A stretch of 64,000 nt of DNA, from the NCBI GenBank assembly GCA_028817035.1, contig JAPPQH010000010.1:11546-75545 (forward strand), written 5' to 3'. The translations under genes and the position numbers were made by a program. This DNA is from Candidatus Campbellbacteria bacterium. Its GTDB lineage: Bacteria; Patescibacteriota; Minisyncoccia; Phycocordibacterales; JABAAK01. Shown in pieces: positions 6,901 to 64,000 of the stretch (the first letter of the stretch is position 1; each line of letters starts with the position of its first letter). Under the pieces are notes generated by a model. That model worked only from the letters and a program-made list of their open reading frames with translations, did no database searches and was not told where the DNA came from.

Positions 6901-7650
6901 ATCTTCTTTGGCAAACTCAAAATCTGGGTGTATAAACAACGCACCTTCATTATTACCTTTTTCTATAAAACTAACTCCAAAATTTTTTGACCAAAATTCT
7001 TTTTGTTTATCTGCTTTTATAGTCTCGCCATCCGACTTACAAATCCCTTTGTATATCTGTTCTGTGTATTTCCTAACCTCTTTTCTATTTTTTATATATA
7101 TACTGTGCTTAAAAATACCTGTTTTACCCTTTAATTTTTCTTCATTTTTATCTTTTGATAAAATTCCTTCAATTCTATCTTGATTACCATAAAATATATT
7201 TTTTATTTCTTCTTCTCCAGATTTCTTTCTTACACCGCCAGAGAGCCTTATTTTATTATTAAAAGAATCAAAATCTATTAAATCAAAGAATTTTAGATCT
7301 TTCTTCTTCATATCCTTCTTGACCTCATTATTAGCACTGTCATCTATAAAACTCTTTATTTTAAATACATTGTCATGAAACACACTTCCAACTCTTAGAA
7401 AATCAAGATATAAATCAAATAATGAATATTCTCCTCTGCCATCTTTCAATGTTGTTGCATTAAACTGACCAACTTGACCTTCATAATCACATCTTATCTG
7501 ATTCATAAGATTTTCTGTTTCTGATTCATCCTTAAATACAATTGGAAATTTTATTGTTCTGATTGCCTTACCACCAGTATATTTTAACCTTCTTAGATGA
7601 AGTTTATAACCTGTCATTCCCTTGTATTTTCTTGATCGTTTTGCTTTCAT
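3979..7650 (-). CDS. cas12d: type V-D CRISPR effector Cas12d (CasY)-like nuclease
   Basis: 1223 aa. RuvC-I LGIDVGEYGLAFSLID (D874, codon at 5029-5031), RuvC-II ...IPSYELSISNFE (E958), zinc ribbon CTECW (C1018/C1021) ... CPFKGC (C1152/C1157), RuvC-III SDADIQASLIIG (D1162/D1164). N-terminus GYKLHLRRLKYTGGKAIRTIKFP and motif WAEYRTTMGGKLSSW resemble published CasY N-terminal/helical motifs as recalled. Operonic with cas1 and short-spacer array. Confidence 0.85.
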   Translation of the reverse strand: MKAKRSRKYKGMTGYKLHLRRLKYTGGKAIRTIKFPIVFKDESETENLMNQIRCDYEGQVGQFNATTLKDGRGEYSLFDLYLDFLRVGSVFHDNVFKIKSFIDDSANNEVKKDMKKKDLKFFDLIDFDSFNNKIRLSGGVRKKSGEEEIKNIFYGNQDRIEGILSKDKNEEKLKGKTGIFKHSIYIKNRKEVRKYTEQIYKGICKSDGETIKADKQKEFWSKNFGVSFIEKGNNEGALFIHPDFEFAKEDVKEQDLIDRVRKKYGENPISFLAMATNHNPLSYAFNKFLKPVREGDIDKAKEMILNINSDLWKGKEKELEKRLKWLSSRAKLLPETPYMAKSWAEYRTTMGGKLSSWISNTENQKEDIDHVLFGYTKKDKDGKDVGVPGHEEHLKTLLDIIKEKNNKNIDRLKNLTNELINLNKSIKTNLLAKSFDIYSRILGDLRVELNKFIQAQNPEMEEKELKKERNKYKSVFATLPKFPTFPGIRKKEHLTKILNSKEMYKDGLDIIERLRKMLDNDLELRKIEDEDVENEKITLLRRFDTLNNLYKDSTPWAQNIIQKAITTTTGIDIKGLKEKEVFTKYKRRGNWKELELGKNIEEIFDSIPKLIDLLRPDFKKRKLENIREHIDAIELEKIRIGLITYYKKISVSKSDFLKNFSKTKRFEEAGEYLKLQEGKTLDGDKINTILQRYFFAEMKGTLNILSKKIFKERYVVQPMGSGADFPLVFDKKDNLWYIAKKENLSKTKTETDFLQLSDKTKDPSKKKNFIPVENINCGFKIQSSKYQTQFLNESSPFFGNSINKDFDVKISDYSFIGEEDYQIDWSKDQPVFNKVRGSSKIFISIPFELKVKKNLGQKEIKAELEERNRYLGIDVGEYGLAFSLIDIKNKKLLFSWFDYEKGIRKVRERFKENKEKQKAATFTSSNTKLAEIRKSISSSLKNRIHDVAVRYNAIPSYELSISNFETGSSRLTALYKTVKTADVATENNPSEKMTREHVWGTSNFIGVHKSAYGTSYVCTECWRSLYTIRDMQNEKSKKKASKKKETEEVSWEWERINNSKYIKATIDNGQEVYGFLEGDKKKGAMKTKELIKSIQDFARPPIFDVENEKNVKLNSESFKDHPVIKDAFFKKYDNKERKKFYETAGNSGIFVCPFKGCGHISDADIQASLIIGLRAWFKKDKKNTKANFQDEMNKYKDMGFKPVKLNMPRKSFNDIISKNARKK

Positions 7651-7698
7651 ATCAGTTTATTTTAGCACAAAGACTTTTATTTTGGAATAAAGCGATAT

Positions 7699-7735
7699 AA
7701 AAAAAAAGCCCCGAGGCTCGAAGAGCACTCGGGGC
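7699..7735 (-). terminator. Rho-independent terminator for gene 7761..8234
   Basis: GC hairpin gccccgag-N12-ctcggggc (7708-7735) followed on minus strand by T9 (A-run 7699-7707 on plus). Confidence 0.7.
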
Positions 7736-7760
7736 GTAATTCGGTTAGAGGAGAAACGGT

Positions 7761-8234
7761 TTATTCACCATCCTGTGTTGAGTCAGCATCCTGCATCAAC
7801 TTCATAAACTCGTCTCGCGCAACCTCGTTTTGTTCCTGGTTGCGTTCACTATAACCTTCGTTTGCAGCATCTCGCAAATCACTCTCTGCAGGACCGATTT
7901 CAGGTGTTGGAGCTTTGTCATACTCTCGGACTTGCTCCTCAAGCAGAGGATTTGCGGGCTGTATCACCGTTTTGGGTCGATACCCCATTTCTACCTGTGA
8001 GTAGATAATGGCTGCCGCAAAAAACACCATCCAGAGACCGATGCACCACTTGTTTGACCAAAGTACATCGCCGACTGGAGACGCTCTTTCGCTTCCGTCA
8101 ACCATTTTGGGGTCTGCTTGCTCCACTTGGTTCGCCATCCTGCGCCAAATAGCAACTGCCGAAACAATCACTACAAGCCACAGAACAACTTTGATAAGAG
8201 CAAACCCAAAGACTGAGATGGCAGTGATATCCAT
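7761..8234 (-). CDS. hypothetical membrane protein (2 TM, acidic C-terminus), co-operonic with SPFH protein
   Basis: 157 aa; higher-GC than genome background; 13-nt gap to upstream SPFH gene. Confidence 0.5.
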   Translation of the reverse strand: MDITAISVFGFALIKVVLWLVVIVSAVAIWRRMANQVEQADPKMVDGSERASPVGDVLWSNKWCIGLWMVFFAAAIIYSQVEMGYRPKTVIQPANPLLEEQVREYDKAPTPEIGPAESDLRDAANEGYSERNQEQNEVARDEFMKLMQDADSTQDGE

Positions 8235-18148: not shown

Positions 18149-18177
18149 TTGACAAGATTGGGGTTGTTTGATATACT
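18149..18177 (+). promoter_or_regulatory. sigma70-type promoter TTGACA-N17-TATACT for first REC/zinc-finger gene
   Basis: Direct reading 18149-18154 TTGACA, 18172-18177 TATACT; the whole promoter/5'UTR block is duplicated at 19164-19330. Confidence 0.55.
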
Positions 18178-18315
18178 CAAAAATAGTACTGCTCTTTCAC
18201 AAAAAAGGAGGTAAAAGGCAGACAAAGAATTTATGTTTTGAAAGGGTGCCCTTAGGTGCCCAAAATGCCACTCGCAACCGTGAGTGGTCCCACAAACCAA
18301 CAAAAGGAGAACGGT

Positions 18316-19089
18316 ATGCAAAAGCAAACCAACCCTGCCCTGGGTAAAGAGGGCACCACCCCCCTTCGCGTTCTCGTCATTGATGACAGCGAACGCCACC
18401 AAAAGAGTGCGCGACTCACCCTCGCGGACCACGATCTCACGATCGTTGGGACTTACGAGGAGGCAGAGAAGATCCTGCTTCCTGCCATCTATAAGGCAGG
18501 TGGCCCGAAGGTGGAGGAAGAGATGGAGCGTCTCGGTTTTAGCACTGACGTTAAGTCATACAAGGACTGGGAAGAGTTCCGCAAGGTCCAGAAAGAAATC
18601 GCCAAGAAGCTCTTCCCGACCTTTGACGCAGTCCTCTGCGACCTGCTTATGCCAGTGGTGCATATGTCGGTTTTGAGGGAGCAGAAGAATGAGGAGTATG
18701 CCGGGGAGGAAATGCCCTTCGGCTTCAGCCTCGCTTTCCAGGCAGCTAAGCATGGTGCGAAGTATGTGGCGGTTGTGACTGACACCGGTCATCACGACCA
18801 CCCTGCATCCGCAATGCTTGACCCCCTAAGTTTTAAGGTTCAATTCACAATTACCGGCTTCCATCGCCATCGCGGTGTAACAACTGGCGACAGATATGGT
18901 GCTGCTGTAGGTTTCTACAACAGCCCAAAGATGGTGGAAGTGGAAGGGGTATGCCATGCCTGCGACGGCACTGGACAACGGCATGACAGCGAATACAAGT
19001 GCCCGACCTGCAGAGGGTCTGGCAGCGCTCGGGGTAAGGACTGGGGGTGTATCCTCAAGAAACTCCTTGCCGCTGGCGAGACTGCCTGA
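18316..19089 (+). CDS. receiver (REC)-like domain protein with C-terminal DnaJ-type CxxCxGxG zinc-finger pair, paralog 1
   Basis: ATG at 18316 with AAGGAG RBS (ORF track starts at an upstream GTG, 18256). RVLVIDDSE beta1-like, VLCDLLMP phospho-acceptor-like Asp, His-rich TDTGHHDHP, C-terminal CHACDGTG...CPTCRGSGSARG; ~55 percent GC. Confidence 0.6.
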   Translation: MQKQTNPALGKEGTTPLRVLVIDDSERHQKSARLTLADHDLTIVGTYEEAEKILLPAIYKAGGPKVEEEMERLGFSTDVKSYKDWEEFRKVQKEIAKKLFPTFDAVLCDLLMPVVHMSVLREQKNEEYAGEEMPFGFSLAFQAAKHGAKYVAVVTDTGHHDHPASAMLDPLSFKVQFTITGFHRHRGVTTGDRYGAAVGFYNSPKMVEVEGVCHACDGTGQRHDSEYKCPTCRGSGSARGKDWGCILKKLLAAGETA

Positions 19090-19111
19090 CACCTCCGACG
19101 ACGACCACACG

Positions 19112-19153
19112 GCCGCTCAAGAGCTTTTGCTTGCGAGCGGTCGTTTTTATTTT
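19112..19153 (+). terminator. Rho-independent terminator after paralog 1
   Basis: gccgctc...gagcggtc hairpin followed by gtttttatttt. Confidence 0.6.
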
Positions 19154-19163
19154 AATCTTGGGC

Positions 19164-19193
19164 TTGACAAGATTGGGGGTCTTGTGCTACAAT
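19164..19193 (+). promoter_or_regulatory. sigma70-type promoter TTGACA-N18-TACAAT for paralog 2
   Basis: 19164-19169 TTGACA, 19188-19193 TACAAT; preceded by the same ttttattttaatcttggg junction as the paralog-3 promoter. Confidence 0.55.
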
Positions 19194-19331
19194 TAAAAAT
19201 AGTACTGCTCTTTCACAAAAAAGGAGGTAAAAGGCAGACAAAGAATTTATGTTTTGAAAGGGTGCCCTTAGGTGCCCAAAATGCCACTCGCAACCGTGAG
19301 TGGTCCCACAAACCAACAAAAGGAGAACGGT

Positions 19332-20117
19332 ATGCAAAAGCAAACCAACCCTGCCCTGGGTAAAGAGGGCACCACCCCCCTTCGCGTTCTCGTCATTGAT
19401 GACAGCGAACGCCACCAAAAGAGCGCCCGACTCACCCTCGCGGACCACGATCTCACAATCATCGAGACGCATCAGGAGGCGCTTGTGACCTTGAATCGGG
19501 AAGATTTTCCCAGGCTTTATAGCAAAAAGGTGAAGGAAGAGATGGAGTGTCTCGAGCTTAACCCCGATTCATATGGGAGTCCGAGTGAGTATCTTAGGGC
19601 ATGTGACAAGGCAAGGGAGGAGATTGTTAACAAGCACTTTCCACCCTTTGCCTTTGATGTCGTCCTCTGCGATCTGTTCATGAAGCCAGCGGCAAATATA
19701 GTGAACACCATGGATGGTAGAGAAAGCTTGAGGTGGAGGAAGGAGAAGTTTGCCCGAGAGGAAATGCCGGCTGGTTTCGGTCTTGTCCTCATGGCAGTGG
19801 ACAACCCCTTTCATAGTGTGAAGTATGCGGCGGTTGTGACTGATACCAATCACCATGACCACCCTGTTTCTGCTATGCTTGACTATGTAACCCATAGTCA
19901 AGGAGAGAAACCTCGCTTCAAAATCAACGGAGCGACGGTAGGTTTCTACAACAGCCCAGAGATGGTGGAAGTGGAAGGGGTATGCCATGCCTGCGAAGGT
20001 ACTGGGCAAATTGACAGCGACTACGATTGCGAGACCTGCAGAGGGTCTGGCAACGCCCGGGGTAAGGACTGGGGACTCGTCCTCAAGGACCTCCTTGCCG
20101 CTGGCGAGACTGCCTAA
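19332..20117 (+). CDS. receiver (REC)-like domain protein with C-terminal DnaJ-type CxxCxGxG zinc-finger pair, paralog 2
   Basis: First ~40 codons and 5'UTR identical to paralog 1, then diverges; VVLCDLFMKP, TDTNHHDHP, CHACEGTGQ...CETCRGSGNARG. Confidence 0.6.
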   Translation: MQKQTNPALGKEGTTPLRVLVIDDSERHQKSARLTLADHDLTIIETHQEALVTLNREDFPRLYSKKVKEEMECLELNPDSYGSPSEYLRACDKAREEIVNKHFPPFAFDVVLCDLFMKPAANIVNTMDGRESLRWRKEKFAREEMPAGFGLVLMAVDNPFHSVKYAAVVTDTNHHDHPVSAMLDYVTHSQGEKPRFKINGATVGFYNSPEMVEVEGVCHACEGTGQIDSDYDCETCRGSGNARGKDWGLVLKDLLAAGETA

Positions 20118-20135
20118 CGCCTCCGACGACCACAC

Positions 20136-20178
20136 GACCGCTCAAAAGCTATGGCTTGCGAGCGGTCGTTTTTATTTT
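20136..20178 (+). terminator. Rho-independent terminator after paralog 2
   Basis: gaccgctc-N16-gagcggtc then gtttttatttt. Confidence 0.65.
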
Positions 20179-20188
20179 AATCTTGGGG

Positions 20189-20217
20189 TTGACATAAGAG
20201 ATTTAATATATTATCCT
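20189..20217 (+). promoter_or_regulatory. putative promoter (TTGACA, weaker -10) for third REC-like gene
   Basis: ggggTTGACAtaagagatttaatatattatcc; AAGGAGG RBS 8 nt before ATG 20253. Confidence 0.4.
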
Positions 20218-20252
20218 TAATTTAGCTGAACTTTTCAAAAAGGAGGAAAGAT

Positions 20253-27329: not shown

Positions 27330-29399
27330 TTAGGCGTTTGTGCTATACTGCCTCTCATGGATCATTGCGTCACCTATAATTTTTTCCACTTGCTCAATTT
27401 TTCCACTCAACTTAATACCCTTTACTTTTTCAATATGTCTCAAAAAGTCGTGGAGCATAATAGATTTAGAAAGCATTATGCTTGTCTGCTTATATAATTC
27501 TTCCCCTTTGGATAAATAAGATTGGTTATCTATTTGGTCAAGTAGAAATAAAGTTTCTTGCGAAAGACTCTCAACTATCTCTGTAATTCCCAACATACCT
27601 TCTGTATTGTAGAAAATCATATCTGCATTTGCATCAATTTTTTTATATAAGTCTCTATTGTGCCTCTTCTCCTTTTTGATATTGTTTATATAGGTCTTGT
27701 TGAACTCTTTGGCTTCTTCGTCTGTCTTTATGTCGCTTTCATACAACTTTGAGATGTAGTCAAAGAGTACTCTGCTTCTATGAGCCAGTCTTTGCTTGGA
27801 GAAGTGCGCATCTTCTTTTAGCTTCATCTTTTCCATTATAATTTCTTTACTATCGTTGAGGTCTGCAAGTTGTTCTACTGTTTCTTCATAGTTTATTTCA
27901 TCGTTTTCCATCATACCCTCCAGCTTTTTTATCTCTTTGATTTTTGCACCTAATTCCAATAAGTCTTCCTTGTCGTGTTGGTATGGAATTGAATTTATTT
28001 TTTCCTCTGCCTTTGCATATATTTTTTCTAATCTTTTGGATAACACAGACATCCCATCAATTGATTTTCCAGACAAAATACCTTCTGGCTGTCTCTCCAG
28101 TTTTTCATTATATCTATTTATCGCCCCACCAAGATTTTCTTTTATTTGTTTAGAAATAGGGAGTCCATTTGATATATAATCATTAATCACTTTTGATAGG
28201 TTTGGTGAAGATGCTTCATATTTTTCGGTTTTATTATTTTCTTTTAATAGACTTGCATATAAATCATCAAGTTTATCGCTAGTTGTCATAGCGCCTATGT
28301 CTAACATCATAATCTCTATTTTTTCTAACCTATAATTTTTATACTCTGAATCTTTTTCTTTTAACAGACTTGCCTGACAATCATACAATTTACTTAGTGT
28401 TGTGGCTTTTAATTCTTCCACTTGTTTTTCGGACATTTCTTCTAGAACGGAAAATGATAGCGGTGACAGTGAATCTATCACGATTTCATTAATTTTTTTC
28501 TCTGACATTTGCTTTATCATATCTTCCAATGCTGGAAGTGGTTCTGCCATATTAATCTTCTCCACACCAAAAAATGCCATTTTATCCGAAACATTTTTCG
28601 CAACCTCAGAATTTATAAGATCATAAAATTTCATTTTTGATTCATTTATCTTGTTCAAATCTTCTTGGCTTGGGTATGCCTCGCCAACGTCAAATGGAGA
28701 AACTGAGCCTTCACCCACATCTGTTTCTTCCCCTTCACCAGTCGGTGACACTTGTGGTGGTGCTTGTGGGGTCTTATCTTTCCCTTCACCGGTTGGTTGT
28801 GCTTGTGGATTTGTATCTCCAAGTCTGTTTGATGGGATTCTCAAAGAACCTTCGCCTAATCCTGTTGGCGGTGCTTGTGGTGGTGCTTGTGGGGTCTTAT
28901 CTTCCCCTTCACTGGTTGTTGGTGCTTGTGGGGTCCCATCTTCCTCTTCACCGGGAAGTATCAAAAAATCTTTGCCTAGTCCTGTTGGCGGTGCTTGTGG
29001 AATTGTCTTTTCAAGCTCATCTACTGTTGCTTTCTGTTTCGCTGCCTTTATTGCTTCCTGTCTCGCTTTATCTTTCTTTGCGCTTGCTATTATTATTTTT
29101 ATTACTCTTGGTGACATTCCTTTAAATAATGCTTCTAATTTATCCAATACCTCTGACTTTCTCATCAATTTAACCCTCGCCATATTTTCATTAGCCAACT
29201 TTTTCGCATCCACACATAGACCTTCAATTTTCCGACGAGTTTCTTTATCTTCAATAGTATCGGCAAGTTGAACTATTTCATTTAATTTTTCCAGTATTTT
29301 AAAATCAATCTGATCTGCTGATTCAATAAATCGCCTAAACACCTTCCACTGGACTCTTATATCTTCACCTTCTCTACTTTTATAAAATCTCTCATCCAT
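27330..29399 (-). CDS. hypothetical coiled-coil protein with Pro/Gln-rich TPQAPPTGLG/TPQAPPQAPPTGEG repeats
   Basis: 689 aa; low-complexity repeat block around residues 130-230; no TM; adjacent to ATPase gene. Confidence 0.5.
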   Translation of the reverse strand: MDERFYKSREGEDIRVQWKVFRRFIESADQIDFKILEKLNEIVQLADTIEDKETRRKIEGLCVDAKKLANENMARVKLMRKSEVLDKLEALFKGMSPRVIKIIIASAKKDKARQEAIKAAKQKATVDELEKTIPQAPPTGLGKDFLILPGEEEDGTPQAPTTSEGEDKTPQAPPQAPPTGLGEGSLRIPSNRLGDTNPQAQPTGEGKDKTPQAPPQVSPTGEGEETDVGEGSVSPFDVGEAYPSQEDLNKINESKMKFYDLINSEVAKNVSDKMAFFGVEKINMAEPLPALEDMIKQMSEKKINEIVIDSLSPLSFSVLEEMSEKQVEELKATTLSKLYDCQASLLKEKDSEYKNYRLEKIEIMMLDIGAMTTSDKLDDLYASLLKENNKTEKYEASSPNLSKVINDYISNGLPISKQIKENLGGAINRYNEKLERQPEGILSGKSIDGMSVLSKRLEKIYAKAEEKINSIPYQHDKEDLLELGAKIKEIKKLEGMMENDEINYEETVEQLADLNDSKEIIMEKMKLKEDAHFSKQRLAHRSRVLFDYISKLYESDIKTDEEAKEFNKTYINNIKKEKRHNRDLYKKIDANADMIFYNTEGMLGITEIVESLSQETLFLLDQIDNQSYLSKGEELYKQTSIMLSKSIMLHDFLRHIEKVKGIKLSGKIEQVEKIIGDAMIHERQYSTNA

Positions 29400-29410
29400 A
29401 ATTATATATA

Positions 29411-31801
29411 CTACATTTGTGTAATTTTTCTTATATTATCTTCAACCTCTTCTGATGGACTTCCATATCTTTCAAGTGATTTCATAACAATGAAATCGGC
29501 TATCTCCCTATCCCCTCTATCTACAAACTTAACATTCATAGAAAACGGTTTCTTGGGATGACCGCCAGAGAGAATGCGAACTGCGGCATTCAGATTTTTC
29601 ATTGATATGAGATCATAAGCAGAGAAGGATGGCTCCAGTTGTTTTTCAAGAATCTCGGCGTCCTCATTTCCTATCCTAAAACTCACTATTGTTCCGACAT
29701 TTCCAAAGACAGCACCTTTTATCTTGTCGGACAGTTGTTGGACATACTGGTGGGCTATCATCAGATTCAATCTATACTTTCTCGCCTCTGAAAGTATTGT
29801 TGATATGGTGTCGGTGGTGAAATTCTGAAACTCGTCAATATATAGATAAAAATCTTTTCTTGATTCTTCTGGGATATCTTCGCGAGCAAATGCAGCAAGT
29901 GTGAGTTTGTTTGTTATCATCATTCCGAGTAGGTGTTGATTTATTTCCCCTATACGACCTTTTGATAATTTTACCAGAAGAACATTACCTTCATCAATTA
30001 TTTTTCTAAAATCTATTGAGGAATACGGCTGTCCCATAATCGGACGGATGTAGTCATTTGCTATAAAAACATTGAATTTTGAGGTTATATATGGCGTTAT
30101 GTTGGAGAGTGATGCCTCACCTGTAACCACTGATGCCTCTTTCTCCCAAAAGTCAATGACGATGCCCGTCTTGGCAAGAGATATTTTTCTCCTACGGAAT
30201 TCTTCATCAACAAAAATACGCGGAAGTTCTATGAGTGTTGAGGGTCTTCCCTCTTCTGATTCCATAAGTAGCAACAGCGCGTTTCTCATGTATTGTTCAA
30301 ACATTGGACCCATTGTTTCTTCCGAAAAGAGTGATTTGAATATATTTAATATTTCGTTTACTATAAAAGTTTTTTCCTCTGGTCTTGAGTGGTCGTATTC
30401 GAGCATATTGAGAGCAAATGGTCTTTCCAAATTGTCGGGATTAAACAAAATTGTGTCTTCGCTTCTGTGCTCTGGTATTAGACTGGAAAGATCGTCTATC
30501 ATGTCACCTGCGGGATCAAGAACGCACACACCTCTTCCTTCATATATATCTTGAACCACCATACTTTTTATGAGACTTGTTTTACCTGTTCCTGTCTGTC
30601 CGATGGAATAAATATGTCTTCTTCTGTCTTCATGTGACAGTCGGATTTCTTTTGTTCCATCTTTGCCTACATATTCTCCAAGCAAAAGTCCTTCGGTTGG
30701 AAGATCGTGTGGTGGTGCAACTGTTTTGTTCTCTTCCCACTCAACAAGCCTGTGTCTATCTGTAAATGTGGGCAAGTGAAAGATACTTACCAACTCGGCA
30801 AGGTTCAGACGCATCCTTTTGCTTTCATCAAAAAGAGAGAAGGACAAGTCAGAAGCAAACTTAGATATATCTTTTGCCTTCTTTACCACAAACTCATTAT
30901 AATTTGTTCCTAAAAATTGACCGAAGCCGCTTGAAAGAACATCAAAAAGGCTCTCTGCGGCGTCTTCTGTTGTTGCAGATGCACACACCCTAACAACAAC
31001 ATCCAGTATCGGCTTTTCCACCTTTGCTTTCAATATTTCTACCTCATCCTGATTGACTTCTGGTTGCTGTGGTACCTCCCCTTTTTTCTTATCTTTAGCA
31101 CCAGAAAAAGAGGAAACGAGAGAATGAAAAGCATTTTCTGCCTTGATTGCTTTTTTCAAGGAAGAGCCCTTTGTTAATCTGCCCAATATACGATGGACTG
31201 TACTGCTGTTGCTTTTTGAACTTTGGCGGACAATTACTTGCATCATAAGACCTATGTTTTTTTGCGAAGCGCCTGTAAAAGTGTTTAGTATCGGAAGAAA
31301 GGTGTCTTTTTCAGTTAGTTTATATGTTCGTATTGGAATTGAGAAATGCTTTTTTGTTTCTACATACCCTCCAACTGCGTGCGATTTTTCACTAAAAATA
31401 GTGTAGTCATTTGTCTTTACCACTTTTGCTTCTGGAAATATTCCCTTTATTTGTTCTTCTGTAACATCTTCTTTATCTCTTGCAACTCTTATAAAAAATT
31501 GTAAAGATGGTTTTCCATAAGGAAGCGCCATTTCAAAAGCAAACACGCTGTTCACCGCAGCAAGTGCGTTGAATAACTGTTCGGATCTTGCAACCTCTTC
31601 TATTGGATTTTTTGTTTCTTTTTGTTTTTCATCCCTATATATAGATACAGAAAGAAGTGTCATCTGAAGAGATTGGGCAATCATCTTTTTTTTATTGATT
31701 TTGCGGATAAAAAATAAAAAAAGAATTATCAGACCAAGAATAATGGCAGACGCCCCCGCTATTATCAGAATTAGTATTGGATTTGAAAGAAGATTCAACA
31801 T
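29411..31801 (-). CDS. membrane-anchored AAA-like ATPase (DUF87; VirB4/TraD/HerA-like), putative DNA/protein translocation ATPase
   Basis: 796 aa; N-terminal TM; Walker A IYSIGQTGTGKTS, downstream VCVLDPAGD and Walker B-like LYIDEFQNF. Confidence 0.5.
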   Translation of the reverse strand: MLNLLSNPILILIIAGASAIILGLIILFLFFIRKINKKKMIAQSLQMTLLSVSIYRDEKQKETKNPIEEVARSEQLFNALAAVNSVFAFEMALPYGKPSLQFFIRVARDKEDVTEEQIKGIFPEAKVVKTNDYTIFSEKSHAVGGYVETKKHFSIPIRTYKLTEKDTFLPILNTFTGASQKNIGLMMQVIVRQSSKSNSSTVHRILGRLTKGSSLKKAIKAENAFHSLVSSFSGAKDKKKGEVPQQPEVNQDEVEILKAKVEKPILDVVVRVCASATTEDAAESLFDVLSSGFGQFLGTNYNEFVVKKAKDISKFASDLSFSLFDESKRMRLNLAELVSIFHLPTFTDRHRLVEWEENKTVAPPHDLPTEGLLLGEYVGKDGTKEIRLSHEDRRRHIYSIGQTGTGKTSLIKSMVVQDIYEGRGVCVLDPAGDMIDDLSSLIPEHRSEDTILFNPDNLERPFALNMLEYDHSRPEEKTFIVNEILNIFKSLFSEETMGPMFEQYMRNALLLLMESEEGRPSTLIELPRIFVDEEFRRRKISLAKTGIVIDFWEKEASVVTGEASLSNITPYITSKFNVFIANDYIRPIMGQPYSSIDFRKIIDEGNVLLVKLSKGRIGEINQHLLGMMITNKLTLAAFAREDIPEESRKDFYLYIDEFQNFTTDTISTILSEARKYRLNLMIAHQYVQQLSDKIKGAVFGNVGTIVSFRIGNEDAEILEKQLEPSFSAYDLISMKNLNAAVRILSGGHPKKPFSMNVKFVDRGDREIADFIVMKSLERYGSPSEEVEDNIRKITQM

Positions 31802-44769: not shown

Positions 44770-45414
44770 CTATTTTCTGCCCTTTTTCCATTTATCTATA
44801 TCCCCGTGATGACCTGATAAAAGGACCTTTGGGACCCTATATTTCCTATTCTTATAGCAAAATACCTCTGGTCTCGTATATACCTCGCTATTTGAGACAC
44901 GGGATTCCTCTATGGAATCTGGGTTACCAAGGACATTCGGCAGATGTCTTGAAATGGCGTCTATGACAAACATGGCAGGCAGTTCGCCGCCCGTCAATAT
45001 GCACCTACCAACCGAAATTTTTTTTGCTTTTGTTATTTTTTGAACACGCGCATCAATCCCCTCATAATGACCGGATATCAGTATTATGTGTTTATATTTT
45101 TTTCTGATTCTGTTTGATATGGAAGATGTAAATTCTTCACCGCTTGGTGTAAAGAAAAAAGATACCACATCTTTTTTTCTTCCAACCGCTTTTTCAAAAG
45201 CTTTAAGCACCGGCATTGGTTCAATAACCATCCCTGGTCCACCACCGTATGGTCTTTTGTCTATTCTCTTTCCTTTCTTTTCAGAAAAATCAATTGGGTT
45301 GTAAAAAGATACTTTTATTGATTTTTGTTTTACTGCACGCCCTATTATTGAGGTATTAAGATATTCTTTGAATACATCTGGGAACAAAGTTATTATGTGA
45401 AAATGCATAGACAT
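44770..45414 (-). CDS. trmD: tRNA (guanine37-N1)-methyltransferase
   Basis: 214 aa; MHFHIITLFPDVF N-terminus, RPYGGGPGMV SAM-binding knot. Confidence 0.9.
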   Translation of the reverse strand: MSMHFHIITLFPDVFKEYLNTSIIGRAVKQKSIKVSFYNPIDFSEKKGKRIDKRPYGGGPGMVIEPMPVLKAFEKAVGRKKDVVSFFFTPSGEEFTSSISNRIRKKYKHIILISGHYEGIDARVQKITKAKKISVGRCILTGGELPAMFVIDAISRHLPNVLGNPDSIEESRVSNSEVYTRPEVFCYKNRKYRVPKVLLSGHHGDIDKWKKGRK

Positions 45415-45470: not shown

Positions 45471-45749
45471 CTACTCGTTTCGTGGGGGTCGCTCCGACTC
45501 ATCAAGTCGAAAACTTACATAAGCATTGTTTTTTCTTCCGACTGCCCTCAAAAGTGTTCTTATTGCATCTCTGGTTTTTCCGGACCTTCCTATAATTTTA
45601 CCTCTCTCCGCTGGGTCAACAGAAAGCGTTAGCAATACCCCCTTAGGGTCTACTCTTCTATCCACTTTAACGCTGTCTGTATTATCAACGAGTGCCTTAA
45701 CTATGAATTCCAAAAAATCCTGATCTAAATTTGCTGAACTATTATCCAT
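45471..45749 (-). CDS. KH-domain RNA-binding protein (UPF0109/YlqC-like)
   Basis: 92 aa; KH GxxG loop IIGRSGKTRDAIR; conserved neighbour of rpsP/trmD. Confidence 0.8.
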   Translation of the reverse strand: MDNSSANLDQDFLEFIVKALVDNTDSVKVDRRVDPKGVLLTLSVDPAERGKIIGRSGKTRDAIRTLLRAVGRKNNAYVSFRLDESERPPRNE

Positions 45750-45890
45750 ACTAATCTCCTCTAAATTACCTTGTTCTTAAAAACGACTCAAAGAAAATCT
45801 TCCTGTCGTATAGATTAATTCTATATTATCCCTCCCATTTTGGTCAAGTATCCTCAGGGCTCGCATTCATCCACCCCATTTGTGCCCTAT

Positions 45891-45934
45891 TTTAATTAAA
45901 AAACCACCCACAGCGACAAGGTCGCGTGGGTGGT
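45891..45934 (-). terminator. bidirectional-looking terminator hairpin after paralog A
   Basis: aaccacccac-agcgacaaggtcgc-gtgggtggtt perfect stem, T-run on minus strand (A-run 45893-45900 on plus). Confidence 0.7.
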
Positions 45935-45981
45935 TGAAAACTTGGGTGGCACATATGATTTCAATAGCGTCTGCCAGGGGC

Positions 45982-46674
45982 TTAAAGGACTTGGTTGACA
46001 TTCCGAGAAAGGTTTTCAACACCTTCCAAAGATATCCCACTTGAAGACTCTCTAGCATACTCTTTGCCCAATCTCTCGATACACCACTCTTTGACTTCCC
46101 TGAAGTGTTCTGGACGACAATCCTCGTTATCCAAGAGTTTGCCAATTTTCATGAGTGCTGCAAGAACATTGCGATCATTTCGCGCATTGCCAAGATACCA
46201 TTGGTATCCGCGTATGCCGTGGTGTAGGCGATATCTTCCAAACCACCTGTCCTTACCATCGAGAACATCATTGTAAGCATTGCCGATGATGTAACCACCA
46301 AAACCCATTCTCATCAAAAAACAGATGTCATCATGACAATAATATGGGTTGTTAAGGTAGTGTCCAACAACTAAAAAGTCCAGTTTGGCAGATCTTACAA
46401 TACAAGCTGTTTTTCTTGGGTCAAGAGCGACTGAAACAATGTCGTCACCTTTGGGTGGGACGTATTTCTTCGCCATAGGGTCAACAGGTACACGGTACAC
46501 TACAAAGAAGGTAGCTTCGTATACTTCGCCTTCTTCCCACGCCACCATGTTCTTCATATTCTTCTCCAACAAATTTTTGGTTTTTTTCCACAAACTTCTA
46601 GTGAAAGATAGCGATTCGTCATCACAAAGAAACCCTACCCTGAATTCCTTCTTAGGCTTTTTCTCAGTAGCCAT
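45982..46674 (-). CDS. hypothetical protein, triplicated family copy A (possible Rossmann-like fold)
   Basis: 230 aa; shares FRVGFLCDDESLSF, LDFLVVGHYLNNPYYCHDDICFLMRMGFGGYIIGNAY with copy B (~85 percent) and more distantly with copy C. Confidence 0.6.
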   Translation of the reverse strand: MATEKKPKKEFRVGFLCDDESLSFTRSLWKKTKNLLEKNMKNMVAWEEGEVYEATFFVVYRVPVDPMAKKYVPPKGDDIVSVALDPRKTACIVRSAKLDFLVVGHYLNNPYYCHDDICFLMRMGFGGYIIGNAYNDVLDGKDRWFGRYRLHHGIRGYQWYLGNARNDRNVLAALMKIGKLLDNEDCRPEHFREVKEWCIERLGKEYARESSSGISLEGVENLSRNVNQVL

Positions 46675-46813
46675 AAGATTTTCCTCCTCTTTCCTTTACT
46701 TCCACAAAGTGAAACCTGTTTTCGGGATGCGACAAGCATCCCTTTCAAAGAACACGCGAGGACTTTCGTCCCCACATTGCTTTTATTATATTACCAAAAC
46801 AAGCATTTTGTCA
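46675..46813 (-). promoter_or_regulatory. promoter (TTGACA-N18-TATAAT) plus conserved structured 5' leader of copy A
   Basis: Minus strand: TTGACA (rc 46808-46813), TATAAT (rc 46784-46789), then ~105-nt leader with GGAC-GAAA-GUCC tetraloop hairpin, GGGAUGC-UUGUC-GCAUCCC hairpin, UUCAC-UUU-GUGGA hairpin, AGGAGG RBS; leader identical in all three copies. Confidence 0.6.
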
Positions 46814-46860
46814 AACCACTCAGTTCTTCTATTTCATTATCGCTCTGTGGTTTCATTGCT

Positions 46861-46904
46861 TTAATTAAAAAACCACCCACGGCGACAAGGTCGCGTGGGT
46901 GGTT
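46861..46904 (-). terminator. terminator hairpin after paralog B
   Basis: aaccacccacggcgacaaggtcgcgtgggtggtt preceded by A-run on plus strand. Confidence 0.7.
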
Positions 46905-46939
46905 GAAAACTTGGGTGGCACATATGCCAACCCGAGATG

Positions 46940-47647
46940 TCAATAGGGTCTGTCAGGGGCATCAAGGACTTGGACGACATTCCGAGAAAAGTTTTCAGCA
47001 CCTTCCAAAGATATCTCACCTGAAGACTCTCTAACATACTCTTTGCCCAATCTCTTGATACACCACTCTTTGACTTCCCCGAAGTGTTCTGGATAACTAG
47101 GATTGTTATCCAAAAGTTTGCCAATTTTCATGAGTGCTGCAAGAACATTGCAATCTTTACGCGCATTGCCAAGATACCAATTGTGTCCTCGCCATTTCCC
47201 AAACCATCCGTTTTGTTCATCGGGAACATCATCGTAAGCATTGCCGATGATGTAACCACCAAAACCCATTTGCATCAAAAAACAGATGTCATCATGACAA
47301 TAATATGGGTTGTTAAGGTAGTGTCCAGCAACCAAAAAGTCCAGTTTGGCAGCTCTTACAACACAAGACGCTTTTCTTTTGTCTTCGTAAGCAGTGGCTG
47401 AAACGATTGAAACAATGTCGTCACCTTTGGGTGGGATGTATTTCTTCGTCTGGTCAACAGGTACACGGTACACTACAAAGAAGGTAGCTTCGTATACTTC
47501 GCCTTCTTCCCACGCCACCATGTTCTTCATATTCTTCTCCAACAAATTTTTGGTTTTTTTCCACAAACTTCTAGTGAAAGATAGCGATTCGTCATCACAA
47601 AGAAACCCTACCCTGAATTCCTTCTTAGGCTTTTTCTCAGTAGCCAT
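46940..47647 (-). CDS. hypothetical protein, triplicated family copy B
   Basis: 235 aa; paralog of 45982..46674. Confidence 0.6.
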   Translation of the reverse strand: MATEKKPKKEFRVGFLCDDESLSFTRSLWKKTKNLLEKNMKNMVAWEEGEVYEATFFVVYRVPVDQTKKYIPPKGDDIVSIVSATAYEDKRKASCVVRAAKLDFLVAGHYLNNPYYCHDDICFLMQMGFGGYIIGNAYDDVPDEQNGWFGKWRGHNWYLGNARKDCNVLAALMKIGKLLDNNPSYPEHFGEVKEWCIKRLGKEYVRESSGEISLEGAENFSRNVVQVLDAPDRPY

Positions 47648-47786
47648 AAGATTTTCCTCCTCTTTCCTTTACTTCCACAAAGTGAAACCTGTTTTCGGGA
47701 TGCGACAAGCATCCCTTTCAAAGAACACGCGAGGACTTTCGTCCCCACATTGCTTTTATTATATTACCAAAACAAGCATTTTGTCA
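47648..47786 (-). promoter_or_regulatory. promoter plus conserved structured 5' leader of copy B
   Basis: Same leader sequence as copy A; minus strand TTGACAaaatgcttgttttggtaaTATAAT upstream. Confidence 0.6.
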
Positions 47787-47837
47787 AACCACTCAGTTCT
47801 TCTATTTCATTATCGCTCGGCAGTTTCATTTTCATTA

Positions 47838-47878
47838 ATTAAAAAACCACCCACGACGACAAAGTCGCGTGGGTGGTT
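47838..47878 (-). terminator. terminator hairpin after paralog C
   Basis: aaccacccacgacgacaaagtcgcgtgggtggtt with flanking A-run on plus strand. Confidence 0.7.
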
Positions 47879-47888
47879 TGGGTCAACC

Positions 47889-48740
47889 TCAACCTGTGCG
47901 TTCCATTATGCTAAGAACACTACCCTGTGTGCGAAAGTCAAGGGCAGAGAGAATATCTCTACCTAAAAATACAAGCTTTTCACAACATTCTTCGTTTGGG
48001 TCTTCACCCCAGTATTCAGGTTTTTCTTTACCAACAAAATCTTGGATAAACCCAAGAATGCAGTCGGCATCTATTTTCTGTAAGCAATCACGAGCGCTCA
48101 AAGAATGGCGTTCATCCACTCCGTGATTAACGATTCCCATGGATCGTATAAACAACTTAAGAAGATGAGGATTTTCGCTCATATCGCCAAGGTAGTTCGC
48201 TACACCATAGGGTGGTCTAACGGGAAGCCTGCCCAAACCCACGGTCCCCTTGAGATCATAACCTCCCTCGTTGCCGATGAAATAACAACCTCCACATCCA
48301 CCATGTAACAAAGAAACGTAGAAATCATGACCACTAAATTTCCCACCACCACTAAGATAGTTCCCATCTCCAAGATAGGGGTTGATGATGAGAAAATCTG
48401 GTCTGACAGTTTTTACAAGATCTTTTGTTTCTTTCTTGCCATTGCGGTAGAACAACAATATATTGTCGTCTTCGCGTTCGGGTATAGGACTGCCATCACA
48501 AGACACAACATAGAAATCTTTGTAGATGTTGTATGCATCCCATTTCTCCTTGCCCTTTCTCAGGAGTTCTCTCGTTTTCCTCCAAAAATCTTGTGTTTGC
48601 GGTAACTCACTGAGATGACAGAGAAACGCAATCCTTACTGTTCTCTCAATCCTCCCATTGACTTTTGCTTCTGTGCTCATTTCTTTTCCTCCTCTTTCCT
48701 TTACTTCCACAAAGTGAAACCTGTTTTCGGGATGCGACAA
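47889..48740 (-). CDS. hypothetical protein, triplicated family copy C (divergent, Gly/Cys-rich insert)
   Basis: 283 aa; conserved blocks VRIAFLCHLSE, PDFLIINPYLGDGNY...GHDFYVSLLHGGCGGCYFIGNEGG align with copies A/B. Confidence 0.55.
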   Translation of the reverse strand: MSHPENRFHFVEVKERGGKEMSTEAKVNGRIERTVRIAFLCHLSELPQTQDFWRKTRELLRKGKEKWDAYNIYKDFYVVSCDGSPIPEREDDNILLFYRNGKKETKDLVKTVRPDFLIINPYLGDGNYLSGGGKFSGHDFYVSLLHGGCGGCYFIGNEGGYDLKGTVGLGRLPVRPPYGVANYLGDMSENPHLLKLFIRSMGIVNHGVDERHSLSARDCLQKIDADCILGFIQDFVGKEKPEYWGEDPNEECCEKLVFLGRDILSALDFRTQGSVLSIMERTG

Positions 48741-48819
48741 GCATCCCTTTCAAAGAACACGCGAGGACTTTCGTCCCCACATTGCTTTTATTATATCTCA
48801 CTAACCAAAGTTTTGTCAA
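48741..48819 (-). promoter_or_regulatory. promoter (TTGACA rc 48814-48819, TATAAT rc 48790-48795) plus conserved leader of copy C, immediately downstream of rpsP
   Basis: Leader identical to copies A/B although coding sequence is strongly diverged. Confidence 0.6.
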
Positions 48820-48853
48820 ACCCGCGCTCTGCGACCTATTACTTCCCCCTTCT

Positions 48854-49444
48854 TTATTGTTCTTTCTTTTCTTCGGTTGGCGCTTCACCCTCTGTTTTCT
48901 GTTCTGCTGTTGCTTCCTTATTTTCCACCACCTCTTCTTTTTGTTCTGGCTTCTGCTCTGTCGTCTCCTCTGGCTTCTGCTCTGTCGCCTCCTCTACCTT
49001 TTGTTCTGCCTGTGGTTGTTCGGTTGGTGCTTTTTCCTCGCCAACTTTTTCCTCTCCACTTTTTTGTTCAGCTGACACTTCACCCTCTGCTTTTTGAGTG
49101 GCTACTTCTTCTGTCTTATTTTCATTGGCAACACCAGCCTCTTGTTTTTCTTCGTTAACTTCTTTCTTTATAGGTGTTTTCTTTGGTAGGACATTTTTCT
49201 TTTTTCCTTTGAGCATACCGTCTGCTACCAATATATTAAAAACTGTCTCAGACACTTCTGCACCGTTGTTCATCCAATGTTGTATTCTCTCCTTTTCTAT
49301 TGATTTGGTTTTTCTTATGCTGTCGTAAGTTCCCAACTTTTCTATATACTTTCCACTTTTAGGACCAACGCTGGAGTCCACAACAATAATACGATATGAA
49401 GGATTGTTTTTTCTTCCTGTTCTTTGTAATCTTATTTTAAGCAT
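48854..49444 (-). CDS. rpsP: 30S ribosomal protein S16 with long Lys/Glu-rich C-terminal extension
   Basis: 196 aa; MLKIRLQRTGRKNNPSYRIIVVDS N-terminal S16 domain (~80 aa) then low-complexity KE-rich tail. Confidence 0.85.
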   Translation of the reverse strand: MLKIRLQRTGRKNNPSYRIIVVDSSVGPKSGKYIEKLGTYDSIRKTKSIEKERIQHWMNNGAEVSETVFNILVADGMLKGKKKNVLPKKTPIKKEVNEEKQEAGVANENKTEEVATQKAEGEVSAEQKSGEEKVGEEKAPTEQPQAEQKVEEATEQKPEETTEQKPEQKEEVVENKEATAEQKTEGEAPTEEKKEQ

Positions 49445-61095: not shown

Positions 61096-63552
61096 CTATT
61101 TTTCTAACCTATGAATATGAATATTGGGATATTGCCTTTCGAGTTTATTAAATTCTTCATCACTCATATTTCGGCTAACAACTAGTCTTTCTAAATTATA
61201 AGGACGACGTGGTGGTGGAAATTCTTCTGCATTTGTGAGACCTTTGAGTTCAAGCCACCAAACACTCTCAGGTATCTTCAACCCTTCTGCAGTTTTGAGA
61301 CCGTTGAGAGAAAGCCTCTTCACACTCTCAGGCATCTTCAACCCTTCTGGGTTTGTGAGACCGTTGAGAGAAAGAATCTTCACACCCCCAGGTATATTCA
61401 ACCCTTCTGGGTTTGTGAGACCGTTGAGTTCAAGATGCTTCACACCCTCAGGTATATTCAACCCTTCTGGGTTTGTGAGACCGTTGAGTTCAAGATGCTT
61501 CACACCCTCAGGTATATTCAACCCTTCTGGGTTTGTGAGACCGTTGAGTTCAAGATGCTTCACACCCTCAGGTATCTTCAACCCTTCTGCAGTTTTGAGA
61601 CCGTTGAGATAAAGCTCCTCCACACCCTCAGGTATATTCAACCCTTCTGGGTTTGTGAGACCGTTGAGATAAAGCCACCTCACACCCTCAGGTATATTCA
61701 ACCTTTCTGGGTTTGTGAGACCGTTGAGAGAAAGACCCCTCACACCCTTAGGTATCTTCAACCCTTCTGGGTTTGTGAGACCGTCGAGAGAAAGAATCTT
61801 CATGCCCTCAGGTATATTCAACCCTTCTGGGTTTGTGAGACCGTTGAGAAAAAGTGCCATCACACCCTTAGGTATCTTCAACCCTTCTGCAGTTTTGAGA
61901 CCGTTGAAATCAAGTTCCAACACACCCTCAGGTATATTCAACCCTTCTGGGTTTGTGAGACCGTTGAGATGAAGATGCTGCACGCCCTCAGGTATATTCA
62001 ACCCTTCTGGGTTTGTGAGACCGTTGAGAGAAAGTGACCACACACCCTCAGGTATATTCAACCCTTCTGGGTTTGTGAGACCATTGAGTTCAAGATTCTC
62101 CACACCCTCAGGTAATGGCGGAATGTCTTTTATATTTGTGGTTGAAAGAATAATTATGTATTCACCCCCAACAACAATTGGAAATTTAGTTCCGCCGTTT
62201 CTTTTTAGTTCTGCTAATTCTTTATCTTCAATTAATAAATTCCCAAGGTGATACACGCATTTACCAGATAGGGCTTCTTCTTCCGAAGTGCTTATTTGAT
62301 CCTTTGGAACACCAAAGATATATGCAACATCTTCTATTTTATCTCTTCCTCTCAGTATTTCTTCTATCATCTCTTCACCTCCTAAGAAGTTGTGTATCTT
62401 GCCATCAATTTCATATAGAAAGCGTAGGTCTTCTTTTGATATTGATAGTGGGCTGTTGTGGATCTCTGTAACCCGTTTCATGTCCTCCGCTGCCTTGTTG
62501 TATCTCTCCGCTTCTTGTGGGTATTCCTCAAGCTTTTCTTTGAGGACAGGGAATATGTATTCATCTAATGTTTGCCCCTCTTCTATCCCGCTTATCTCGC
62601 GTATACCTTTCCCTCTAAACGCTATCGTCAATCTTGGGATAGTGGGGTCTCCTCTTTTATCATTGGAATAGTAGATAAGGGCATCTCCATTGTCTAAGTA
62701 CCCTTCGCAAGTATTGATAGAACCTTCTAAACACCAGCCAGTGTGATGTCCTTGAAGTGAATCAAACATTTCTTTTTCTTGTCCTTTTGTAAATCTTCTC
62801 CACTTACCATCAATCACCTCAAGATGCTCAGCACCTCTGTTTCTTTTCAATATCTCCATCCTTCTGATGTATGCCTTTACAAAGTTTTTGTTCTCTAAGT
62901 ATGTTCTAAATTCCTCATCTTCTGTTTCTATGTCCTTACCTTCCACTATCTTATTGAAATGCTCATATATTCCCGCAAGGGCTTGTTTGTTTAATGTTAG
63001 GAATGGTTTTGCTGTGTATTTTGTTCTTTTGTAGAATTGCTTCTCATTTACTTTGTATTCACCCACACGCAACACATTCTTTAGGGCAAGGAACTTAAAC
63101 CAAAGGGGATATGCGTCTGTCTCATGTGATGCAAAATACTCTATCCAATTGTAGAGACTATCCTCTTGGTCTCCTATCACCCTTTCTGCATATTCTTTCT
63201 TCAGTCTTGGAATCTCACTCTTTGTTATGTCCTCACCCCATGATATGTCCTTACCCCTATCTCTTTCTATTTTTAGATGATTATTAAATGCCTTAGATAT
63301 ATTCTCCTCTTTTATGATATGGTTTCTCTTCACCATCCTCCATATCGCCTCTACCCCTCTTTCCCTCTTTTGTTCGTCCTCCCTTTGCAACACTTGTGCA
63401 TAACGATCCAGAAATACCTTAATAATTTCTTCTGGCTTGTCTATCTTTTCACCAGTCCTTACCTCCTCCCTTTTTGCAGGTCCTCTAATCTTTTTGAATA
63501 AATGTTGGTCGGCACCTCCCAAGAACTCTGCACCCATCTTGTTTTCTTTCAT
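61096..63552 (-). CDS. leucine-rich-repeat protein (about 20 tandem 22-aa LNGLTNPEGLNIPEGVxxLxLNG repeats) with ~470-aa N-terminal domain of unknown function
   Basis: 818 aa; repeats encoded by near-identical 66-bp DNA units; no signal peptide seen; conserved C-terminal tail ERLVVSRNMSDEEFNKLERQYPNIHIHRLEK. Confidence 0.7.
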   Translation of the reverse strand: MKENKMGAEFLGGADQHLFKKIRGPAKREEVRTGEKIDKPEEIIKVFLDRYAQVLQREDEQKRERGVEAIWRMVKRNHIIKEENISKAFNNHLKIERDRGKDISWGEDITKSEIPRLKKEYAERVIGDQEDSLYNWIEYFASHETDAYPLWFKFLALKNVLRVGEYKVNEKQFYKRTKYTAKPFLTLNKQALAGIYEHFNKIVEGKDIETEDEEFRTYLENKNFVKAYIRRMEILKRNRGAEHLEVIDGKWRRFTKGQEKEMFDSLQGHHTGWCLEGSINTCEGYLDNGDALIYYSNDKRGDPTIPRLTIAFRGKGIREISGIEEGQTLDEYIFPVLKEKLEEYPQEAERYNKAAEDMKRVTEIHNSPLSISKEDLRFLYEIDGKIHNFLGGEEMIEEILRGRDKIEDVAYIFGVPKDQISTSEEEALSGKCVYHLGNLLIEDKELAELKRNGGTKFPIVVGGEYIIILSTTNIKDIPPLPEGVENLELNGLTNPEGLNIPEGVWSLSLNGLTNPEGLNIPEGVQHLHLNGLTNPEGLNIPEGVLELDFNGLKTAEGLKIPKGVMALFLNGLTNPEGLNIPEGMKILSLDGLTNPEGLKIPKGVRGLSLNGLTNPERLNIPEGVRWLYLNGLTNPEGLNIPEGVEELYLNGLKTAEGLKIPEGVKHLELNGLTNPEGLNIPEGVKHLELNGLTNPEGLNIPEGVKHLELNGLTNPEGLNIPGGVKILSLNGLTNPEGLKMPESVKRLSLNGLKTAEGLKIPESVWWLELKGLTNAEEFPPPRRPYNLERLVVSRNMSDEEFNKLERQYPNIHIHRLEK
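61235..62110. repeat. array of ~13 tandem 66-bp coding repeats (several copies 100 percent identical)
   Basis: e.g. cacaccctcaggtatattcaacccttctgggtttgtgagaccgttgagttcaagatgctt repeated back-to-back at 61440, 61506. Confidence 0.85.
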
Positions 63553-63654: not shown

Positions 63655-64000
63655 TTATCTCCGCTCAATTTCAATATGAGGATATTGCTCTTTGAGTTTA
63701 TTAACTTCTTCATCACTCATATGTTGGCTAACAGTTAGTCTTTCTAAATCATTAGGAAGTGGTGGAAATTCTTCTGCACTTGGGAGACCCTTGAGTTCAA
63801 GCCACACCACCCTCTCAGGCATATTCAACCCTTCTGGGTTTGTGAGACCGTTGAGAGAAAGATCCAGCACACTCTCAGGTATCTTCAACCCTTCTGGGTT
63901 TGTGAGACCGTTGAGTTCAAGATTCTGCACACCCTCAGGTATATTCAACCCTTCTGGGTTTGTGAGACCGTTGAGAGAAAGACACCTCACACCCTCAGGT
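63655..64000 (-). CDS. LRR protein paralog, C-terminal part (5' end beyond window)
   Basis: Same 22-aa repeats and C-terminal tail (ERLTVSQHMSDEEVNKLKEQYPHIEIERR) as 61096..63552. Confidence 0.65.
   Translation of the reverse strand, partial: PEGVRCLSLNGLTNPEGLNIPEGVQNLELNGLTNPEGLKIPESVLDLSLNGLTNPEGLNMPERVVWLELKGLPSAEEFPPLPNDLERLTVSQHMSDEEVNKLKEQYPHIEIERR

Follow-up and report, generated by a model that had tools for sequence, protein, structure and literature searches.

Concerted evolution by gene conversion is exemplified by tuf genes and ribosomal RNA operons, and 5′-terminal stem-loops that stabilise mRNA are exemplified by the ompA and aprE leaders. Diversity-generating retroelements (DGRs) are marked by adenine-specific mismatches between template and variable repeats plus a nearby reverse transcriptase, and integron cassettes are promoterless open reading frames (ORFs) with attC and an adjacent intI. 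These systems, together with the lineage-specific tandem ORFan islets that occupy flexible spots in reduced genomes of the candidate phyla radiation (CPR) and the immunity/effector arrays of polymorphic toxins, were compared with a tandem array of three paralogous genes, designated A, B, and C, from Candidatus Campbellbacteria bacterium (assembly GCA_028817035.1). The array was located in a 64,000-nt stretch of contig JAPPQH010000010.1 (positions 11,546 to 75,545, forward strand; the whole stretch is referred to as the window, and all coordinates are those of the window). It is probably a species-specific accessory insert in the rpsP–khpA spacer, composed of three tandem whole transcription units with flanks homogenised by gene conversion and with fast-evolving protein products.

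The host was an uncultured, sponge-associated bacterium, and A, B, and C were annotated as hypothetical in its metagenome-assembled genome (MAG; MDD9868033-35). According to the ORF list and Pfam, the gene order on the minus strand was, from 5′ to 3′, rpsP, C, B, A, a KhpA-type KH-domain gene, and trmD; ORFs and Pfam matches to S16, KH, and TrmD agreed with a preliminary description of this DNA, which had placed three paralogous genes between rpsP and the KH gene. Each module had the organization promoter–leader–coding sequence (CDS)–terminator, all on the minus strand: (i) module C contained a promoter (48790..48819), a leader (48681..48789), a CDS encoding 263 aa (47889..48680; an old diverged paralog recognised from the ORF, the alignment, and one gene caller), and an intrinsic terminator (47839..47878); (ii) module B contained a promoter (47758..47787), a leader (47648..47757), a CDS encoding 235 aa (46940..47647; ORF with NCBI accession MDD9868034.1, hypothetical protein), and an intrinsic terminator (46865..46904); and (iii) module A contained a promoter (46785..46814), a leader (46675..46784), a CDS encoding 230 aa (45982..46674; ORF with NCBI accession MDD9868033.1, hypothetical protein), and an intrinsic terminator (45896..45935). 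C had been described as 283 aa from a TTG start, and this was an over-extension because it ran through the leader, where A and B sit in another frame; the actual start was the ATG behind the shared GGAGG, and one gene caller concurred with the resulting 263 aa. Two out-of-frame ORFs (45867–46145 and 46861–47124), taken in the preliminary description as by-products of the duplication, both overlapped CDS 3′ ends and terminators, as by-products would.

The promoters, found by sequence scan, each matched the consensus TTGACA–18 nt–TATAAT at 12/12 positions; four such perfect sites were observed in the window versus 0.06 expected, the fourth preceding rpoB. The hexamers were the same in A, B, and C, while the C spacer differed from the other two at ~8/18 positions, and hexamers kept amid spacer drift mark selection acting on them. 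The leaders, delimited by alignment, were each ~110 nt long, ended in GGAGGAAAA, and folded into three predicted hairpins (minimum free energy −36.4 kcal/mol, z=−2.9), the first of which would start no more than a few bases from the predicted transcription start. The terminators had stems of 15–16 bp (16 bp in module C) with one bulged base, followed by T6 (ΔG −25 to −26 kcal/mol, z about −7). A sigma-70 promoter and an intrinsic terminator were thus present in all three modules as sequence-predicted units, and the earlier view of self-contained modules held, except that the terminator stems were not the perfect 16-bp stems it had reported.

The comparison of the three modules with each other disclosed a mosaic of sequence ages. 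Nucleotide identity of C to A/B was 100% in the leader, ~45% from the start codon onwards, and ~90% in the terminator; the block of 100% identity, 113 nt long in A, B, and C, began at the −10 hexamer and ended at the Shine-Dalgarno sequence, and it had been overlooked in the preliminary description. Of the 61 positions at which B and C share an amino acid other than Met or Trp, 27 had identical codons versus 25.1 expected by chance, and the proportion of synonymous differences (pS) between C and A/B was 0.66–0.72; since codon agreement was at chance level and pS was this high, the divergence of C from A/B in the coding bodies was old and saturated. A 300-nt tract of A (46479..46778, minus strand), covering the leader and the first ~65 codons, was 100% identical to 47452–47751 in B, while A and B shared 85–93% identity past this tract; by our own arithmetic, the chance of a 300-nt perfect tract at 12% divergence was ~2e-17. 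At the protein level, A and B were 79–83% identical, while C was 29% identical to both and alignable to them over ~140 N-terminal residues (BLASTP E=3e-11), in keeping with the earlier account of A and B as close duplicates and C as a strongly diverged copy.

These data are most simply explained as follows. Whole transcription units would have been duplicated, and the array would have grown as its repeated flanks recombined unequally. The leader and terminator, and in A and B also the first ~65 codons as a presumed conversion tract, would be kept identical by gene conversion. Only the flanks would undergo repeated conversion, since its spread into the C body would yield non-functional chimeras, and the coding bodies would diverge freely (A/B dN/dS ~1.2, C saturated), evolving fast under relaxed or diversifying selection. 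Each copy would be transcribed strongly and independently from its predicted promoter. The rpsP stop codon was separated from the module C promoter by ~35 nt, with no terminator between them in the sequence; read-through from rpsP would end at the first terminator of the array, and KH–trmD would run from its own promoter (45818..45847, minus strand; TTGACC–18–TAGAAT, found by sequence scan). By analogy with the 5′ stem-loops of ompA and aprE, mRNA stabilisation would be the likeliest role of the 5′-proximal leader hairpins, and efficient translation would be driven by the exposed GGAGG, as in a high-expression leader.

The perfect identity of the leaders would have another meaning if the 113-nt block were a new cis-regulatory RNA (a riboswitch or the site of an autoregulatory protein), conserved by selection on the RNA and co-regulating the three genes. 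The block was bounded by the −10 hexamer and the Shine-Dalgarno sequence with diverged promoter spacer and codons on either side, the three predicted hairpins are as such an RNA would have them, and the leader was retained by the old paralog C. However, RNAs selected for their structure can still vary in loops and by compensatory pairs, and 0/113 differences beside saturated sites better fits recent conversion; moreover, three identical copies left zero covariation, and the terminator arms were also conserved in sequence, which a riboswitch does not explain. Rfam 15 gave nothing at gathering threshold for the leader, the best match being the ylbH leader (RF00516; 20.6 bits, E=0.31, versus 50 bits needed): the two resembled each other in having a 5′ hairpin and, after it, a Shine-Dalgarno region rich in purines, weakly alignable to the model, but the ylbH leader precedes unrelated genes in an unrelated phylum, and the leader of A, B, and C was not a member of that family. 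A covariance model of the leader recovered no further copies in the window or in relatives, and zero matches were found for a leader 21-mer in metagenome contigs and for a 19-mer in viral contigs; the 19-mer gave 11 matches in a genome contig collection (source MAG not included), all of them chance matches in unrelated high-GC genomes and rejected as further copies. A regulatory RNA is on this evidence unlikely. An extension of the idea, improbable in our judgement, is an undescribed kind of expression cassette in an episymbiotic CPR bacterium, in which the shared, invariant, and structured leader RNA would sense a ligand or protein and control hypervariable enzymes or effectors of new fold, exchanged or diversified by recombination between the flanks.

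The diverged part of A and B contained 47 nonsynonymous and 10 synonymous differences (omega 1.2–1.3); an omega of 0.3 was rejected (p=7e-6), while an omega of 1 was not (p=0.63). Being indistinguishable from 1, this omega would also arise if amplification of one ancestral gene had left redundant copies that decay neutrally, with A, B, or both free of selection. That history appears rather unlikely: all three ORFs were intact, all indels between A and B were in frame (gaps of 3, 15, and 18 nt), C retained an intact frame and 58 invariant residues even as its synonymous sites became saturated, and the promoter hexamers were held while the spacer drifted. DGR-type mutagenesis of A/B was rejected as well, the mismatch spectrum being symmetric (41 transitions and 25 transversions) and not adenine-specific, and no reverse transcriptase was present among the window's Pfam-annotated genes listed. 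Integron cassettes were likewise rejected, each ORF having its own consensus promoter and U-tract terminator, and no integrase was found in the annotated neighbourhood of the array. Self-targeting of the array by CRISPR was also rejected, the spacers giving zero matches to it.

A scaffold from ENA (ROBB21-1_SAMN13943219) equalled the window over 20.8 kb, bar one single-nucleotide polymorphism (SNP; T versus C, 4 nt before the ATG), which was mirrored in A and B (46678 and 47651); this mirroring suggests that reads were not assignable to one copy inside the 300-nt identical tract. Contigs of the same run in Logan broke within repeats, namely at 45942 (A terminator) and 48767 (C leader), and contigs from two other samples were 100% identical to rpsP–C and ended at the C terminator. 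Such breaks and stops, the mirrored SNP, and the short-read origin of every assembly would be expected if strain alleles of one gene had been assembled in series, or if the copy number were wrong. Against such an artefact, which appears very improbable, stood the three distinct coding bodies, the agreement of order and sequence between window and ENA scaffold, and the adjacency of rpsP and C in three samples; moreover, the C-to-B junction sequence differed from the B-to-A junction, and at least two terminator-to-promoter joins therefore existed. We conclude from these sequences that the tandem array is real and not an assembly artefact of a simple kind, which the preliminary description had named as evidence against it, with exact copy number and perfect A/B tract identity lying beyond proof by short reads alone.

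The array was flanked upstream by rpsP (48854..49444, minus strand; 196-aa ribosomal protein S16, Pfam PF00886, E=1.5e-17) and downstream by the KhpA-type KH-domain gene (45471..45749, minus strand; Pfam PF13083, E=4e-18) followed by trmD (44770..45414, minus strand; Pfam PF01746, E=4e-34). Relatives with TrmD 65–68% identical carried S16–KH–TrmD without the A/B/C family at this locus: S16 and KH were separated by 57 nt in L002 and by a ~500-nt spacer in L003 and L004, with an unrelated 80-aa ORF called in L003. A closer relative was L023 (JGI metagenome 3300005074), in which the KhpA protein was identical and the DNA was 91.4% identical over KH–trmD–infA; its alignment to the window started at 45849, the −35 of the KH promoter, and upstream of that promoter L023 had the 3′ end of another gene (1–210). 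Since the homology to L023 begins exactly at the KH promoter, this promoter is older than the insert, and the site upstream of the promoter is variable. The array is therefore an insertion recent at the species level, given that relatives were devoid of the family and that L023 diverged exactly at the KH promoter. The examination of phylogenetic distribution in this way upheld the earlier claim of an insertion in the conserved rpsP–KH–trmD cluster. The gene upstream of KH in L023 ended with a KGWKGWGDWLG motif and had a weak Pfam match to INT_rpt (Integrase-repeat; E=0.0034). In L002, whose TrmD was 67% identical, trmD was directly followed by a run of five genes with no Pfam match (3825–8054). 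Two pairs of paralogs were among them (302 and 311 aa, 29% identical; 229 and 238 aa, 33% identical), and BLASTP found nothing that would make these five orphan genes kin of A/B/C. In several CPR lineages, lineage-specific paralogs seem to accumulate around this ribosomal cluster.

The preliminary description had also recorded the absence of rimM. The gene was absent here, but its absence was not tied to the insert, since the relatives were also without rimM; RimM is reported as nearly absent in CPR (PMC12641178, PMC6744442), and its absence is a clade-wide trait that is uninformative on the insert. A reading in which A/B/C were a ribosome-assembly factor substituting for the missing RimM, and hence placed between rpsP and trmD, would draw on the position beside rpsP, khpA, and trmD and on a strong promoter class that also precedes rpoB. 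It is scarcely credible: RimM is missing across nearly all CPR yet the A/B/C family occurred in one species only, the RimM-less relatives also had no A/B/C, the insert lay upstream of KH and not in the slot between KH and trmD where rimM would be, and a dN/dS of ~1 is atypical of assembly factors. Identity of A/B/C with RimM itself was rejected, there being no match in Pfam/NCBIfam (E<=1) to the RimM N-terminal domain (PF01782) or the PRC barrel (PF05239) and the genes lying upstream of KH. More generally, a role of A/B/C in ribosome assembly is unlikely because the family was confined to one species.

The searches for relatives of the proteins returned little beyond the proteins themselves. 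A word-indexed protein search with B recovered B and A only; a phmmer search with C against 1.84e9 representatives recovered C itself plus one repeat protein (P0004, 1721 aa, Gly/Thr repeats), which was judged spurious as a homolog since weak repeats had been summed against the Gly-rich loop of C; and an A/B/C profile recovered only A, B, and C from 5.8e9 proteins. The score of C against B was only 48 bits, and equally distant relatives would escape detection in databases of such size. Zero matches were found in Pfam, NCBIfam, PADLOC, and PDB sequences, and PHROGs gave just three weak matches, all for B (best E=0.11); tblastn against phage records and protein-profile pattern scans of viral and metagenome contigs gave nothing for A/B/C, and look-ups of the exact A and B sequences gave no record. 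Homology to a housekeeping family, which the preliminary description had named as evidence against it, was looked for and found in none of the libraries searched; its designation of the family as of unknown function was borne out by the sequence and family-library searches, and A/B/C is by these searches a new protein family. Several other identities were considered and rejected: (i) GT-A, with no Pfam match, an invariant DD preceding a strand and not following it, and Foldseek matches to glycosyltransferases at probability <=0.25; (ii) a response-regulator receiver, with no Pfam match and an hhalign probability of 0.1 against the receiver-like second array (see below); and (iii) resemblances to motifs of GT-A, HAD, LMW-PTP, and metallophosphoesterase, with zero profile support.

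The alignment of A, B, and C contained 58 invariant columns, including C17, D77-D78, D99, H114-D115, and GGY-IGN, and both the common motif blocks and the Gly/Cys-rich insert of C noted earlier were seen in it. The invariant polar residues hint at a binding or catalytic site, and it is from this small set that the products are probably ligand-binding or catalytic domains. The top 19-residue Kyte-Doolittle hydropathy was ~1.0, predicting soluble proteins, and hydropathy and signal checks found no signal peptide or membrane segment in A/B/C. The preliminary description had seen in the motif blocks a hint of a Rossmann-like fold. For such a Rossmann-like or flavodoxin-like alpha/beta fold, AlphaFold models built with the three-sequence alignment were of low confidence (predicted local distance difference test score 51.7 for A and 40.1 for C); alternating beta/alpha elements were predicted in these low-confidence models for the N-terminal half alone, and the best Foldseek E-value from them was 0.036. 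We infer soluble cytoplasmic alpha/beta proteins. The third-position GC content (GC3) was 0.43 for A, 0.42 for B, and 0.39 for C, versus 0.325 +/- 0.038 for other window genes. As to function, a role in conflict or host interaction rather than in ribosome biogenesis is the likeliest guess, though doubtful in itself and the weakest step of the explanation.

Several considerations count against the explanation of a species-specific insert with converted flanks and fast-evolving proteins. The conflict or interaction role is guessed from evolutionary rate, paralogy, and orphan status, while sequence and structure reveal no function. Neutral decay of a redundant copy would give an A/B dN/dS of ~1 just as well. 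The identical block runs exactly from the −10 to the Shine-Dalgarno sequence, and direct selection on an RNA element instead of conversion could account for it. Transcription, promoter use, and termination were all predicted from sequence. Full-length A and B occurred in one sample only, and short-read assembly may have created part of the 300-nt identity as a consensus artefact.

A second tandem array was present at 18149–20220 (plus strand), with two genes (18256–19089 and 19272–20117) encoding paralogs of 277 and 281 aa that were 60–70% identical, their first 63 residues being identical and the remainder diverged. Each of its modules had a TTGACA promoter and a terminator, the next promoter following straight after each terminator; its GC content was 0.53–0.55 and its GC3 0.60–0.63, versus 0.38 and 0.325 for the genome, a composition that was clearly foreign. 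Its products weakly matched the CXXCXGXG zinc finger of DnaJ and a receiver domain, and the ENA scaffold had a 100-N gap in this area. Kinship of the second array with A/B/C was rejected (hhalign probability 0.1). The genome thus makes a habit of amplifying self-contained accessory modules, and with a second array of like design the location beside rpsP is of less special significance.

Other features of the window were as follows. The S16 of this genome (196 aa versus 128–147 aa in relatives) had a C-terminal tail of ~110 residues rich in Glu/Lys/Gln/Thr (48854–49180, minus strand), which came partly from 24-nt tandem repeats (48945–49008). A type V-D CRISPR-Cas locus (1955–7650) comprised a CRISPR array (1955–2838) in which a 24-nt repeat (CCTTATCTCCCCTTATTATCGGGG) occurred in 21 identical copies separated by 19-nt spacers, Cas1 (2952–3995, minus strand), and a 1223-aa Cas12d/CasY (3979–7650, minus strand; NCBIfam NF033951, 1054 bits); its spacers had zero matches elsewhere within the window. 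An 818-aa ORF (61096–63552) contained 14 copies of a 60-nt tandem repeat (61262–62114; 88% matches) and had weak leucine-rich-repeat-like matches, and its 60-nt repeat restarted at the window end (63808–64000). At 27330–31801 (minus strand), a 689-aa family-less protein adjoined a protein of 796 aa that contained DUF8128 and weakly matched TrwB/VirD4-type coupling proteins; the pair may belong to an apparatus for DNA or protein transfer.

If the preferred explanation is true, the array would be a clean small case of a reduced CPR genome acquiring and amplifying accessory genes as ready-made transcription units even inside a ribosomal cluster, and it would illustrate that gene conversion can hold regulatory flanks identical while coding bodies diverge. 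For a phylum without genetic tools, it also offers strong promoters, leaders, and terminators as candidate parts. The array would have no bearing on ribosome biogenesis, and the present data reveal no new mechanism.

Compared to the known systems, the array resembled polymorphic-toxin immunity/effector arrays in its small, soluble, fast-evolving tandem paralogs of narrow distribution, but it differed from them in having no adjacent toxin or secretion-system gene and no family match. With the tandem ORFan islets of CPR it shared hypothetical family-less proteins, tandem paralogs, atypical base composition, restriction to one species with near relatives devoid of it, and a second such array in the same window (18.1–20.2 kb); it differed from these islets in its location inside a normally compact ribosomal cluster, in the perfect consensus promoter of each copy, and in an invariant 113-nt leader beside coding bodies of very different age. 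With concerted evolution it shared sharp-bordered blocks of perfect identity between otherwise diverged paralogs, but here the homogenised parts were the non-coding flanks and the 5′ end of the A/B CDS, while the coding bodies escaped. As a lineage-specific tandem ORFan islet with concerted flank evolution, the phenomenon is of an already known kind.

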